From: an uncultured Clostridia bacterium
GTDB taxonomy: Bacteria > Bacillota > Clostridia > TANB77 > CAG-508
Reading direction: 5' to 3'
Assembly (NCBI GenBank): GCA_948560265.1
Contig: CAOXTD010000001.1
Span: forward strand, 73,439-137,438
DNA: 64,000 nt
In this document: one piece after another, positions 6,268-11,000 of the stretch
Layout: the number at the start of each line of letters is the position of its first letter
How positions within the stretch are numbered: position 1 is the stretch's first letter
Program-made: the position numbers and the translations under genes
Notes under the pieces: generated by a model
What the model saw: the letters and a program-made list of their open reading frames with translations, nothing else
Databases searched by the model: none
Told to the model about the DNA's origin: nothing

Positions 6268-7560
6268 ATGCAAGATTTATTAATCAAAGGTGGAAGAGTA
6301 TTACTATTTGAAGATAATGATGTAGTGATAGAAGAAAAGGATATACTAATAAAAGATGGTAAGATTGTTCAAATAAAAGAGAAAATAGAAGAAGATAATA
6401 TAAAAGTAATAGAGGCAGTAAATAATATTGTTATGCCAGGTCTTATTAATACACACGCTCATATTCCAATGAGCATTTTTAGAGAAACAACAGAAGGTTG
6501 TAAATTATACGAATGGTTGAATGAAAAGATTTGGCCAAGGGAAGAAAAACTGACGAAGGAAGATGTTTATTGGGCAAGTATGTTGTCCTATTATGAAATG
6601 ATTTCAACTGGGACAACAACTATTAATGATCAATATTTTATGTCAGAGGAAATTAGAAAAGCAGCTGAAGATTGCAAGATAAGAGCAGTTATCACTAGAA
6701 CAATTATGGATACAGATGGCAGTTTTGAACAGAGGATACAAGAGTTTAAAGATTTTTATGAGTCTAGAGACAAAACGAATAACTTAATTACCTATTCTGT
6801 TGCACCACATAGCTTATACACTTGCTCAGATGAATGCTTACAAGCTGCGGCAGATTTAGCAAAAGAATATCATTTGCCAATTCATGTACATTTTTTAGAG
6901 AGCATTGATGAAATTCAAGATATTCAAAAACAACATGGAAAGAAAGGGGTAGAAGTATTAAAGCAATACTTTAATGGCATTCATACCATTTTAGCACATG
7001 GTGTGCATTTAGATGATGAAGATATTAAGATATTAAAAACTATGGACTGTGGAATTGCCCATAATCCAATTTCAAATTTAAGATTAGGTTGCACAATTGC
7101 TGATACTACCAAATATTTGCAAGAGGGAATTAATGTAGCTATAGGAACAGATGGACAAGGTTCGGGAAGTAATTTGGATATGTTTGAAGCCATGAGAGTA
7201 GCTTGCTTAATTCAAGGTGGTATTCACGAAAATGAAGAGAGAATTACTGCTAAAGATGTACTCCATATGGCAACTATCAATGGAGCCAAATTATTAGGAT
7301 TAGAGGACAAAGTAGGTAGCATAGAAGTAGGAAAAGATGCAGATTTAATTTTAGTAAATGTAGAAGAAAATTTGGATAATATTACTATGTTGCCAAATCT
7401 TAATGAAATAGCCAACTTAGTGTACAATACCAGTGGTAGAAATGTACAGACAATGATTGTAAAAGGTGAGGTACTAATGGAAAATAGGCAGATGAAAATC
7501 GGAAATGTGCAAGAAGTAATAGATCATTGCAATGAAATTGTGAAGAGAATTGCACAATAA
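6268..7560 (+). CDS. mtaD: amidohydrolase, MtaD-like (5-methylthioadenosine/S-adenosylhomocysteine deaminase family)
   Basis: Metal-binding NTHAHIPMS, plus internal HVHF...AHG and GTDG motifs typical of the family. ATG 6268 has GGAG 8 nt upstream and is preferred over GTG 6259. Confidence 0.8.
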   Translation: MQDLLIKGGRVLLFEDNDVVIEEKDILIKDGKIVQIKEKIEEDNIKVIEAVNNIVMPGLINTHAHIPMSIFRETTEGCKLYEWLNEKIWPREEKLTKEDVYWASMLSYYEMISTGTTTINDQYFMSEEIRKAAEDCKIRAVITRTIMDTDGSFEQRIQEFKDFYESRDKTNNLITYSVAPHSLYTCSDECLQAAADLAKEYHLPIHVHFLESIDEIQDIQKQHGKKGVEVLKQYFNGIHTILAHGVHLDDEDIKILKTMDCGIAHNPISNLRLGCTIADTTKYLQEGINVAIGTDGQGSGSNLDMFEAMRVACLIQGGIHENEERITAKDVLHMATINGAKLLGLEDKVGSIEVGKDADLILVNVEENLDNITMLPNLNEIANLVYNTSGRNVQTMIVKGEVLMENRQMKIGNVQEVIDHCNEIVKRIAQ

Positions 7561-7570
7561 AATTTAACTA

Positions 7571-7599
7571 TTGACAAAAAGCAAATTAATAAGTATAAT
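7571..7599 (+). promoter_or_regulatory. consensus sigma-A promoter for a small non-coding transcript
   Basis: Perfect TTGACA, 17-nt spacer, TATAAT. Confidence 0.7.
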
Positions 7600-7605
7600 A
7601 AATAT

Positions 7606-7692
7606 AGAAATAGGAAGCCACAAAAGTGGTCGCCTGTTAAAATGGTATTAATACACACTCTAACCGGGAAGCAGAGTGTGTATTTGTTTTTA
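7606..7692 (+). ncRNA. candidate antisense small RNA (type I antitoxin-like)
   Basis: An approximately 85-nt unit runs from the consensus promoter to the intrinsic terminator. It has no ORF and a 5' hairpin GCCAC-AAAA-GTGG. It converges on the 3' end of the small hydrophobic ORF on the other strand. Confidence 0.5.
7652..7692. terminator. bidirectional intrinsic terminator shared by convergent small RNA and small ORF
   Basis: 10-bp stem TACACACTCT / AGAGTGTGTA with an 11-nt loop, followed by TTTGTTTTT. Confidence 0.75.
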
Positions 7693-7800
7693 TTTGCTTA
7701 ATATATGTACAAGTACAATAATTAAGGCAATTGTAATGATAGTTACTGACACAAGGCCAGCAAAAAGTAAAATAACTAATTGTAATAAAATATCTACCAT
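7690..7800 (-). CDS. 36-aa hydrophobic peptide, type I toxin-like
   Basis: Below the track cutoff: MVDILLQLVILLFAGLVSVTIITIALIIVLVHILSK. A strong SD (AGGAGGTGA) lies 8 nt upstream and can be locked in a 9-bp hairpin, UCGCCUCCU-AAA-AGGAGGUGA. Confidence 0.55.
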   Translation of the reverse strand: MVDILLQLVILLFAGLVSVTIITIALIIVLVHILSK

Positions 7801-7856
7801 ACACATCACCTCCTTTTAGGAGGCGACACACTCTTGCATTTCCTATTCCATATAAT

Positions 7857-7885
7857 ATTATACAAATAAGTAAAAAGTAAGTCAA
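7857..7885 (-). promoter_or_regulatory. sigma-A-type promoter for the small hydrophobic ORF
   Basis: On the minus strand: TTGACT, 17-nt spacer, TATAAT, about 50 nt upstream of the ATG. Confidence 0.65.
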
Positions 7886-8026
7886 TAATCAAACTAAAGA
7901 TAAAACAAATTTTTTGTCTATAAGAAATAAAATCACTTGCAAAATTCATACAAATCCAGTATAATAAAGTCGAAATATGGAACTTTTCTCTGTTTAAGGA
8001 GAAATTCCTACTATATAGAAAAATAG

Positions 8027-11000
8027 GTGAAAAAGTTGTATTTAAAAAGAATGGAATTGCAAGGTTTTAAATCCTTTGCAGATAAAACAGTATTAGAATT
8101 TAAACCAGGTATCACTTCTGTAATTGGTCCCAATGGCTCGGGGAAAAGTAACATTTCAGATGCAATTCGTTGGGTACTTGGTGAGCAAAGTATGAAATCC
8201 TTAAGAGGTGCAAAATCTGAGGATATTATTTTTGCGGGAACACAAGCTAGAAAATCACTAGGTTTCGCAGAAGTTTCTATTGTCATTGATAACTCAGATA
8301 GCAAACTACCAGTAGAATATACAGAAGTAACCGTGACCAGAAAAATTTATCGTAGCGGAGAAACAGGGTATTTTATTAACAAAACACCTTGCCGTTTGAA
8401 AGACATTTTGGAATTGTTCATGGATACTGGAATTGGAAAAGATGGATATAGTATCATTGGACAAGGTAAAATTGATGAGATTTTAAGTAATAAATCAGAA
8501 GATAGAAGACATATTTTTGAAGAAGCAGCAGGAATTGTAAAATATAGAACAAGAAAAGCAGAGTCTGAAAAGAAGTTAGAACAAACAAAATTAAACTTAC
8601 TTCGTATTAATGACATTTTATCAGAAGTAGAAGCGACTATTGAACCACTTAAAATGCAAGCTGATAAAGCAAAGCAATTTTTGGATTTAAGAGAAGAACT
8701 AAAGTCTATTGAAGTAGGCCTTTTTGTATATAATATTGCTACTTACAAAGAAAAGCTAGAACAAATTGTAAAAGACTATGACATTTTAGTTTCTCAAAAA
8801 GAGCTAGAAGATACCAAGATGGAAACTTTGCAAGCAAGTAAAGAGGAATTAAGACAAGCTATTGATGATATCACTAGACAAATTGAAGAAATGCAAAATT
8901 TAGGATTTGAAAGTAGTAATAAAATTGAAAAAATCAATTCAGAAATAGGAATTCACAAAGAGAGAATTCAAAATAATAGCAATAATCAAGAAAGATTAGT
9001 TGAGGAAATAGAAGAAGTAAAAGCAAGAATTTCAGAATTGCAAGAAGAACAAAAGCAAAAATTAGAAAAGAAAACAAGTTTAGGTTCTAATAAGGAAAAG
9101 TTTGAAAAAGAATTAGCCGAAAAAGAAGCAGAGCTACTAGAGCTAACGAAGAAGTTATCAGATAAAGAGCTAGAAATCGAAGGAAAGAAACAAGCAGTTG
9201 AGCAATACACAGATAAAAAATATGAGTTGGCAAGTGAAGTAAATACTTTAGAGGTTAATTTTGAAAACTTAGAAAAACGTAAAAAACAAGTGCAAAATGA
9301 GATTAGTGCTACGATTTCAGAATTGGATAGCACAAGAATGGAAAAGCAAGAACTTTCCAAAGGATTTTATGAAATTGAGTCTAAAAGAAATGTAGCAGCG
9401 GCCAATTTAGAGAAAAAGCAAACAGTTAAAAATGAGAGTATGCAAAAGGTAAAGCAGTTTGAAGAAGAAGTTAGCAAGCTAGAATACAACCAGAGAATGA
9501 AACAAGCTAGACATCAATTTTTAGTGGAAACAGAAAAGGAAAAAGAGGGATACAACAGAACTGTCAAATCTCTATTATTCCATTGTGAAAAAGATAGTAG
9601 CTTAAACAAAGGAGTTCATGGAGTTTTAGCTAATTTAGTATCCGTGGACAAAGAATATGAAATGGCAATTGAGATGTGCTTAGGACAAGCTTTGCAAAAT
9701 GTGGTTACAGAAACAGAGCAAGATGCTAAAAAGTTAATTGAGCATTTAAGAAAAAATAGCTTAGGTAGGGCGTCATTTTTACCGATTTCGTCTGTACAAG
9801 GTAGAAAACTGGACAAGTTGACTAGAATGGAAGGTGTCATTGGCATTGCTTCTGATTTAGTAAAATGTAATAAAAAGTATGAACAAATTGTATTAAATTT
9901 GTTAGGAAGAACAGTAGTTGTAAAAGACATGGACACAGCGATTAACCTAGCAAAAAAAGATAAATATTCTTTTAGAATTGTGACCTTGCAAGGAGATATT
10001 ATCAGTTCTACTGGTTCTATTTCAGGTGGTAGTGTTCAGACAAAAAGTGTCAACATTTTAGGTAGAAGTAGAGAAATTGAAGAACTTGAAAAAGAATTAA
10101 AGAAAATAGAAAAACAAATTGAGGATAAGAAAAAAGAACAAGAGGATTATGCGGCTTCTATTGGTGATTTAATTGAGGAAACAGCTAAACTAGAAAGAGA
10201 ATTACAAGAAATTGAAATTGTTTATGCTACCGAAAAGCAGAAGATGGTTGCTATCGAGGAAAATATCAGCCGTTTAGAAGAAAGACGTGATAAATTAAAA
10301 CAAGAGGAAGTGACCATAGAAGAACAGAAGGCAGAAAATAGGAAACAAAAAGAAGCAAAAGAGCAAGAAAGTGTTTCTATTGTCAAAGAAATGGAAGAGC
10401 TAAATACGGTTATTGAGCAATTTGCGGTAAATAATAAAGATAATCAGAAATATATTGATGATTTGAATTTAGATATTACGAACTTGAAGATTTCTGTTAG
10501 TTCTTTTGATGAAAGTGAAAACTCTATTGATGAGATGGTTGCTAGAATTGAGCAAGATATTGAAAATCAGAAAAAGAGTATGGAGTCTAAGCAAGCTACC
10601 ATAGAAGAAAACAAAAAGGATAATCAAGAACTAGAAGTAGCTATTCAGAACTTAGAAGCACAAATTGAGCAAATTAAGTTAGAGGTTAGCAATAGTTCCA
10701 ACAAAGTAGAGGAGTTAAAACAAGAAAGAACTCAAAAAAATGAAAAGATGACACAAACAGAAACTGAAATTACAAGTCAGTTTGGCGTGTTAGAAGGCTT
10801 GAAAGAACAAATTGTGAAACTTGAAGTAAAAAAGACAAAAGTAGAACAAGATTTGCAGCAAGTGACAGAACAATTATGGGAAGAGTATGAATTAACACCT
10901 AACAATACGGAGGAATATCCAAAGCCAAGTAATGTGGCAACAGCACAAAAGCAAGTGAATAGTTTAAGAAGCAAAATGAAAGATTTAGGCAGCATTAATA

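Follow-up and report, generated by a model that had tools for sequence, protein, structure and literature searches.

The 64,000-nucleotide (nt) stretch of DNA analyzed here (the window) comes from an uncultured Clostridia bacterium (assembly GCA_948560265.1, contig CAOXTD010000001.1, positions 73,439-137,438 of the forward strand). Between an amidohydrolase gene and smc lies a compact cassette (7563-7935, assigned to neither strand), in which two promoters converge on a single terminator. The presumed toxin would be a membrane peptide of 36 residues forming a single helix, encoded by an mRNA of ~210 nt from the minus strand; the presumed antitoxin would be a small RNA (sRNA) of ~88 nt, made from the plus strand under a consensus promoter. 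The limits of the cassette, which is an insertion relative to a sister genome, were set by alignment with the cassette-free spacer of that sister (G008, L060) and with a filled site (G021, L062). The original prediction had described a type I toxin-antitoxin-like module here from the letters alone, and all of its elements were recovered when positions 7300-8100 were read on both strands. The locus is a genuine, conserved and transcribed genetic module, and we consider it likely to be a self-contained, chromosomally inserted type I toxin-antitoxin-like cassette of a previously unannotated family.

A promoter scan located both promoters with the hexamers and spacing that had been claimed. The sRNA promoter (7571-7599, plus strand) matches the consensus at 12/12 positions, with TTGACA at 7571-7576 and TATAAT at 7594-7599 separated by a 17-nt spacer. 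The toxin promoter (7857-7885, minus strand) matches at 11/12, with TTGACT at 7885-7880, again a 17-nt spacer, and TATAAT at 7862-7857. Comparison with relatives used a family set of 45 non-identical modules, extracted and oriented. An antisense promoter of the form TTGACA-16/18-TATAAT (at least 10.5/12 matches) is present in 44 of the 45, on the opposite strand and 83-96 nt beyond the toxin stop codon, whatever gene adjoins. In other clades the toxin promoter is mostly weaker than the sRNA promoter (-35 TAGACA or TTGTAT, -10 TATAGT or TATACT); the clade of the window is the exception.

The predicted sRNA (7606-7694, plus strand), its ends placed from the promoter and the U-tract, comprises a purine-rich leader, a short hairpin (hairpin 1, GCCAC 7617-7621 / GUGGU 7626-7630), a motif UCGCCU (7630-7635) resembling an anti-Shine-Dalgarno (anti-SD) sequence, an A/U spacer and the terminator. 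It is ORF-less in practice, as proposed: the sole listed plus-strand open reading frame (ORF) begins at the -35 hexamer, upstream of the transcription start. The predicted fold (-30.7 kcal/mol, z = -3.95) consists of the short 5' hairpin and the terminator palindrome read from the other side. This layout is constant in the family, where the motif is of the G(U)UGCC type, and hairpin 1 shows compensatory variants in relatives (CCAC/GUGG, CACA/UGUG, CGCA/UGCG, ACAC/GUGU). A MAFFT alignment of 36 sRNAs gave, under RNAalifold, just 3 pairs of hairpin 1. Since indels misalign the terminator in this alignment, alignment-free tests at each locus were used.

On the minus strand, the 36-codon ORF (7800-7690, stop codon 7692-7690) encodes MVDILLQLVILLFAGLVSVTIITIALIIVLVHILSK, one long hydrophobic helix (MVD...ILSK), and is the hydrophobic frame that had been singled out as the toxin gene. 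The alternative starts, an in-frame GTG and an upstream ATG, fall within the SD or follow it by 2 nt; the family alignment begins MVE, MVD or MIE, which favors the start codon chosen originally. Family peptides are 36-43 amino acids (aa) long and follow the pattern M[VI][ED]..L..IY.LFY.L[VI]G.TII..ALII..V.ILSK(QK). No intact family peptide contains proline, and the only C-terminal tails are SK, SKQK and HRQ. The median ratio of nonsynonymous to synonymous substitution rates (dN/dS) is 0.30 by pairwise Nei-Gojobori comparison of family ORFs, and differences at codon positions 1/2/3 number 405/141/559, position 3 being the most variable and position 2 the least. The frame is therefore translated and under purifying selection. 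The peptide had been said to resemble no named toxin family, and this view was borne out: for 15 family peptides Pfam gave no match at E<=10, and NCBIfam, PHROGs and the PDB chains gave nothing meaningful. A search of 5.8 billion predicted proteins returned two entries only, neither of them named.

Folding of the predicted 211-nt mRNA gave a minimum free energy (MFE) structure of -56.6 kcal/mol (z = -3.9), formed by a 10-base-pair (bp) hairpin in the 5' untranslated region (5'UTR) and a 13-bp terminator hairpin. In the 5'UTR hairpin (7806-7826, minus strand), the anti-SD UCGCCUCCU (7826-7818) pairs with the SD AGGAGGUGA (7814-7806) over an AAA loop (7817-7815), so that the proposed sequestration of the SD is part of the MFE fold itself. 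The SD is paired in nearly all loci, and in 35/43 relatives at least 80% of its nucleotides are paired in the 5'UTR MFE fold. At aligned positions of the helix, G:C alternates with A:U (25 vs 12 loci) and C:G with A:U or U:A. The predicted SD-sequestering helix is thus supported by covariation.

The two RNAs converge on one terminator palindrome (7651-7683, common to both strands) with 11-bp arms (7651-7661 and 7673-7683) and an 11-nt loop (7662-7672). A simple terminator scan gave none here because this loop exceeds its 8-nt maximum. The bidirectional terminator of the original prediction is present inasmuch as the palindrome folds on both strands; the U-tract that follows is a good one on the plus-strand RNA and a poor one on its minus-strand counterpart. 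The idea that the stem belongs to a genome-wide family of hairpins like repetitive extragenic palindromic elements was discarded, the stem occurring once in the genome and a hairpin scan giving no other copy of the palindrome. As both RNAs use this palindrome, their 3' ends are complementary over ~55 nt, and the anticipated 3' overlap was reproduced by cofolding: the predicted duplex is continuous, spans ~55 bp and has a net binding energy of about -56 kcal/mol. The terminator loops of the two RNAs are exact complements, a geometry also known from par and from the Bacillus systems with a 3' overlap. Two substitutions, C7664T and G7666A, are read in most public sequencing runs that hold the locus, and both fall in the terminator loop, at the predicted loop-loop contact; complementarity is therefore kept after these changes. 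On the minus strand, the segment 7605-7701 contains a second small hairpin in the mRNA sense, past the shared terminator. This hairpin is the complement of sRNA hairpin 1 and is followed by a U-rich stretch; the segment gives a sub-threshold match to the Rfam LhrC model (28.9 bits), and the hairpin could serve as a second terminator for toxin transcripts that read through.

The 5' and 3' ends of the mRNA are also related to each other. The 9-mer ACACACTCT occurs three times in the window (7653+, 7673-, 7826+), all at this locus; the chance expectation is 0.27, and 0/100 shuffles reach three. It had been reported as shared by the sRNA terminator arm, the toxin 3' end and, as its complement, the 5'UTR, which these three positions confirm. 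In the 5'UTR its complement belongs to a box, GCAAGAGUGUGU (7826-7838, minus strand), complementary to the 5' arm of the terminator in the same mRNA together with the start of its loop, ACACACUCUGC (7683-7671, minus strand). Two pairings had been offered for the 9-mer, one within the mRNA and one between the sRNA and the 5'UTR, and they did not fare equally. Against shuffled arms, the box and its own 5' terminator arm give a mean z of -2.70, with 33/42 loci below -2 (-19.3 kcal/mol and z = -3.56 at the window locus), while the box and the sRNA arm give a mean z of -1.10. Mean duplex energies are -17.0 kcal/mol with the own arm, -13.7 kcal/mol with the arms of other clades and -12.5 kcal/mol with the sRNA arm. 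Intramolecular 5'-3' pairing is therefore the better supported option: as judged from predicted duplexes, the complement of the box lies in the 5' terminator arm of the mRNA itself rather than in the sRNA. The pairing combines a conserved AAGCAG:CUGCUU core reaching into the loop with a clade-specific distal part, and the resulting helix stacks directly on the SD hairpin. When forced, the box/arm helix lies a median of 3.3 kcal/mol above the MFE (2.0 at the window locus), and in some loci it is the MFE structure itself. A role for the box as a co-transcriptional anti-terminator, yielding a read-through mRNA fully complementary to the sRNA, was judged kinetically unlikely; if true, it would explain the concerted evolution of sRNA and 5'UTR described below.

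The 5' half of the sRNA is in turn a same-sense relative of the toxin 5'UTR. Local alignment of the two gives 35 columns with 27 identities, covering the first ~35 nt of the sRNA and the first ~35 nt of the mRNA, that is, the leader and the anti-SD motif. The mRNA leader, UGGAAUAGGAAA (7839-7850, minus strand), was delimited by this alignment as the same-sense copy of the sRNA leader. Alignment scores are 24.1 within a cassette vs 15.5 +/- 3.5 between clades, and the arms of this inverted repeat therefore evolve in concert. Across family loci, no part of the mRNA is complementary to the leader (mean z +0.4). A function as an anti-anti-SD or as one side of an upstream helix was rejected for this lack of an overall partner, the UAGGA/UCCUA match that suggests it being confined to the clade of the window.

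Paralogues of the cassette, which the original prediction proposed to look for, were found on contigs C9, C4 and C1, giving at least four copies in the source genome (G000). Those on C9 and C4 were detected by DNA and peptide searches of the genome. The fourth (C1, ~2100-2450, outside the window) is divergent, was missed by the peptide profile and emerged from a whole-genome signature scan; it shows the same RNA layout, a peptide MVEFLLFLIIELMLSITINIALLCILYIMWTDKQI and an sRNA promoter TTGACT-17-TATAAT. In paralogue 2 (C9:53387-53628; L002, 1410-1760) the usual stop codon is out of frame and the ORF runs through the terminator to 61 aa. This copy may be a pseudogene or a variant toxin, or may reflect an assembly error.

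Beyond the source genome, the window peptide alone matches 16/23 other genomes of the genus (E <= 1). A profile of 15 peptides finds the family in 176/399 genomes of the order and 31/49 genera, almost all within one taxonomic family, at 1-7 copies per genome. In a class-level sample, 5/401 genomes match; all 5 belong to the same order, and none of the matches falls outside it. The cassette family is confined to a single order of uncultured gut Clostridia. Its relatives, listed under names like Clostridium sp. CAG:567 and "uncultured Clostridia bacterium", come from the gut of mouse, human, rabbit, chicken and deer. Phage and plasmid collections held no real match to the cassette, and no description of the family was found in the literature.

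Comparison with the closest sister genome, G008, shows the cassette as a discrete insertion. Its Smc N-terminus is 100% identical and the last 99 residues of its amidohydrolase are 92% identical, and the spacer between the two genes is only ~100 nt and carries no cassette. At this site (L060, 1398-1501) there is only a solo hairpin, CGCACACTCT-AATCAGGAAGC-AGAGTGTGCG-TTTTGT, placed directly after the amidohydrolase stop codon. This hairpin is a homologue of the cassette terminator and represents either a remnant, retained for the needs of the upstream gene, or a precursor of the cassette. More distant members of the genus have unrelated spacers of 40-190 nt here, and cassettes of the same clade sit in other contexts in other species. 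The absence from G008 and the differing contexts indicate that the unit has been gained, lost or moved. The smc promoter (TTGCAA-17-TATAAT, 7937-7965) starts right at the right-hand boundary of the cassette and is conserved in the cassette-free sister, so the insertion left it intact.

Metatranscriptome contigs from mouse gut, obtained in several independent studies, cover the cassette from ~7592/7622/7631 to 7798/7837/7877 with the flanking genes barely covered, and the locus is therefore transcribed. Three further contigs (7510-7676, 7491-7643 and 7516-7754) begin in the 3' end of the amidohydrolase gene, cross the sRNA promoter and stop in the terminator. They suggest that the sRNA sequence forms part of the amidohydrolase 3'UTR, and the cassette terminator probably serves the amidohydrolase mRNA as well.

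Taken together, a small hydrophobic peptide gene under selection (36-43 aa, single helix) and an antisense RNA gene (conserved convergent promoter, ~55 bp predicted duplex) provide two of the generic hallmarks of a type I system. The type I reading of the original prediction gains further from the paralogues, the occurrence of the family in 176 of 399 genomes, the near-invariant antisense promoter and purifying selection on the peptide, as well as from covariation in the SD helix, presence and absence between sister genomes, and transcription of the locus. On the strength of sequence features, the products would act as a toxin and its antitoxin.

A plausible sequence of events can be sketched. 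The mRNA would be translationally silent by default, its upstream anti-SD paired with the SD in the covariation-supported structure. The box can pair with the mRNA's own 5' terminator arm, which would give a 5'-3' closure stacked on the SD hairpin that may act as a lock or stabilizer. By analogy with txpA/RatA and bsrG/SR4, pairing of the sRNA through the terminator loops and arms may lead to cleavage of the duplex by ribonuclease III (RNase III), may hold the mRNA in its silent form, or both. Finally, the same-sense anti-SD copy of the sRNA could occlude the SD in trans, where the predicted pairing is weak.

It is tempting to extend this scheme to antitoxin action by mimicry, in which the sRNA, beyond plain antisense pairing, would work as a permuted same-sense copy of the toxin's own 5'UTR. 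Its leader and anti-SD motif copy the leader and anti-SD of the 5'UTR, its 3' terminator arm with the adjoining loop (AAGCAGAGUGUGU) copies the box, and within each cassette the copies evolve in concert. The sRNA might then replace both contacts made by the 5'UTR, box with 5' terminator arm and anti-SD with SD, and a three-way competition between terminator hairpin, 5'-3' closure and sRNA would set whether the mRNA is stored, degraded or translated. We know of no described type I system with such cis/trans mimicry, and regard the idea as rather doubtful. Somewhat easier to accept, though still not the expected outcome, is that the likeness of sRNA and 5'UTR and the complementarity of box and terminator serve no regulatory purpose and merely go back to an inverted duplication whose copies gene conversion has kept similar, with the sRNA acting through the 3' overlap only. 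The inverted repeat takes in the promoters themselves, as such an origin would have it, the shared leader is without a complementary partner in the mRNA, and sRNA-to-SD pairing is weak. Simple homogenization of the arms, however, predicts otherwise than what is seen at the box, which fits its own arm better than the sRNA arm at the imperfect positions of the palindrome and in the AAGCAG:CUGCUU extension; moreover, where the sRNA motif departs from the cis anti-SD, the changes are mostly A/G or C/U, as read by eye.

Several observations weigh against the type I reading and the scheme built on it. Many type I toxins typically end in a charged C-terminal tail, which the family peptide, a presumed toxin, lacks. 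Both promoters are near-consensus in the window copy, which is unusual if antitoxin must exceed toxin, and the frame-shifted stop codon in paralogue 2 means that not all copies may be functional. In the MFE structure of the window locus the terminator hairpin is favored by 2 kcal/mol over 5'-3' pairing, the 5' half of the sRNA complements the translation start only weakly better than shuffles do (mean z -1.3), and the metatranscriptome contigs are unstranded and of low depth, leaving the two transcripts and their ends unseparated. Some of these points would suit a small membrane protein gene with a cis-antisense regulator and no toxin-antitoxin pair, the peptide having a physiological role in the membrane (as a regulator or subunit, for example) and the sRNA tuning its expression. 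The peptide, whose toxicity is presumed, carries hardly any charged tail and gave no toxin-family match, the cassette lies between core genes outside any prophage or plasmid, and purifying selection fits any functional peptide. Yet 1-7 copies per genome, patchy among close relatives and at unrelated sites, form a pattern that typifies selfish or addictive modules rather than a housekeeping subunit; two layers of repression, by SD occlusion and by an antisense RNA from a consensus promoter, are a hallmark of harmful products; and the family is confined to one order. We think such a role unlikely. The original prediction had itself allowed that the plus-strand RNA might be simply a leader or terminator of the amidohydrolase gene; in the form weighed here, the RNA is only the 3'UTR and terminator of that gene and its promoter match is fortuitous. 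Contigs do extend into the sRNA region from the end of the amidohydrolase gene, the stretch from the amidohydrolase stop codon (7560) to 7651 contains no other terminator, and in G008 the homologous hairpin follows directly on the amidohydrolase stop. The half of this objection that concerns the terminator, which is probably shared, is thus likely to hold. The half that denies an independent sRNA is not: a perfect -35/-10 pair stands at the same distance in 44/45 modules beside unrelated genes, and since the sRNA's own promoter is conserved in these contexts, the sRNA is not merely the amidohydrolase 3' end. Conservation also extends over the segment from promoter to terminator, where hairpin 1 shows compensatory changes; this segment and the toxin 5'UTR evolve in concert, and G008 lacks the whole of it together with the toxin gene. 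A fortuitous promoter thus seems extremely improbable, and a toxin-antitoxin-like cassette that lends its terminator to the upstream gene is the reading we retain.

The family is abundant, being present in nearly half of the sampled genomes of the order and in hosts that include mouse, human, rabbit, chicken and ruminants, and is all but missing from protein databases. In the annotation of genomes, it accounts for a recurrent "intergenic" element with a strong promoter, and shows that the terminator of such an element can be taken over by a neighboring gene. More than 40 natural variants with covarying RNA elements form a data set on communication between the 5' and 3' ends of toxin mRNAs, and the same variants serve the question of whether an antitoxin can imitate the leader of its own toxin.

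Within Clostridia, the type I modules of C. difficile (CD2517.1-RCd8 and relatives) are the only ones studied experimentally so far (PMC6563280). The cassette shares with them convergent, overlapping toxin and antisense genes and small membrane peptides missed by annotation. The C. difficile toxins have lysine-rich C-termini, are mostly encoded in prophages or beside CRISPR arrays, and are often transcribed from Sigma-B promoters (PMC6563280). In contrast, and in a comparison of architecture only, the peptide described here has almost no tail, and its gene lies between core genes and has sigma-70-type consensus promoters.

The par locus has convergent promoters, one bidirectional terminator with complementary stem-loops, an SD within a 5' stem-loop and a short antisense RNA, and its direct repeats DRa and DRb make the 5' regions of both RNAs complementary (PMC7472228). 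The original prediction had likened the locus to Fst/RNAII, and in architecture the comparison is apt: as in par (RNA I/Fst and RNA II of E. faecalis pAD1; the Fst/Ldr group), there are convergent promoters, a shared terminator, an SD stem-loop at the 5' end and a peptide in the range of ~33-36 aa. The peptide itself differs from Fst in having neither the PXXXG motif nor a long charged tail, and matched neither Pfam Fst_toxin nor any solved Fst or PepA1 chain. In place of the direct repeats DRa/DRb the cassette has an inverted repeat, so that the two 5' regions are alike, and the extreme 5' end of its mRNA is unpaired rather than held in an upstream helix.

As in bsrG/SR4 and txpA/RatA of B. 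subtilis, toxin mRNA and antisense RNA overlap at their 3' ends only, and the SD lies in a stem. The overlap is ~55 nt, compared with about 75-120 nt in the TxpA/BsrG family, the cassette is not in a prophage, and both SR4 and RatA are far longer than the ~88-nt sRNA. Family peptides gave no Pfam match of the Hol_Tox/TxpA type. In an Rfam search at a permissive threshold, membership of BsrG (RF01412) was rejected at 12.9 bits vs a gathering score of 55 (E = 0.57-1.4), as were those of rli28, also sub-threshold (18.3/45 bits), and LhrC (28.9/110 bits), where the match reflects only a shared arrangement, two hairpins followed by a U-rich tail. When the antisense RNA binds the 3' end in bsrG/SR4, the effect reaches the SD region far upstream (PMC4147584). 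By analogy, pairing of the box with the terminator arm beside the SD hairpin could relay 3' binding in the same manner.

A second parallel concerns the 5'-3' closure. In hok/sok of plasmid R1 and aapA1/IsoA1 of Helicobacter pylori, the primary toxin mRNA is held inert by long-distance pairing of its 5' and 3' ends. The cassette mRNA resembles hok and aapA1 mRNAs in the conserved complementarity of 5'UTR and 3' end and in occlusion of the SD in the primary transcript. It differs in that the antisense RNA overlaps the 3' end instead of the 5' region and that the 3' partner is a terminator arm, so that the closed form competes with the terminator. Nor is it a member of the hok/sok group: the peptide is unrelated and has no Pfam Hok/Gef match, and there is no overlapping mok-like leader ORF with an SD. 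The kind of system found here, type I toxin-antitoxin-like, is thus already known; the family and the inverted-repeat (mimicry) design of its RNAs are new, and its layout is both par/Fst-like and bsrG/SR4-like.

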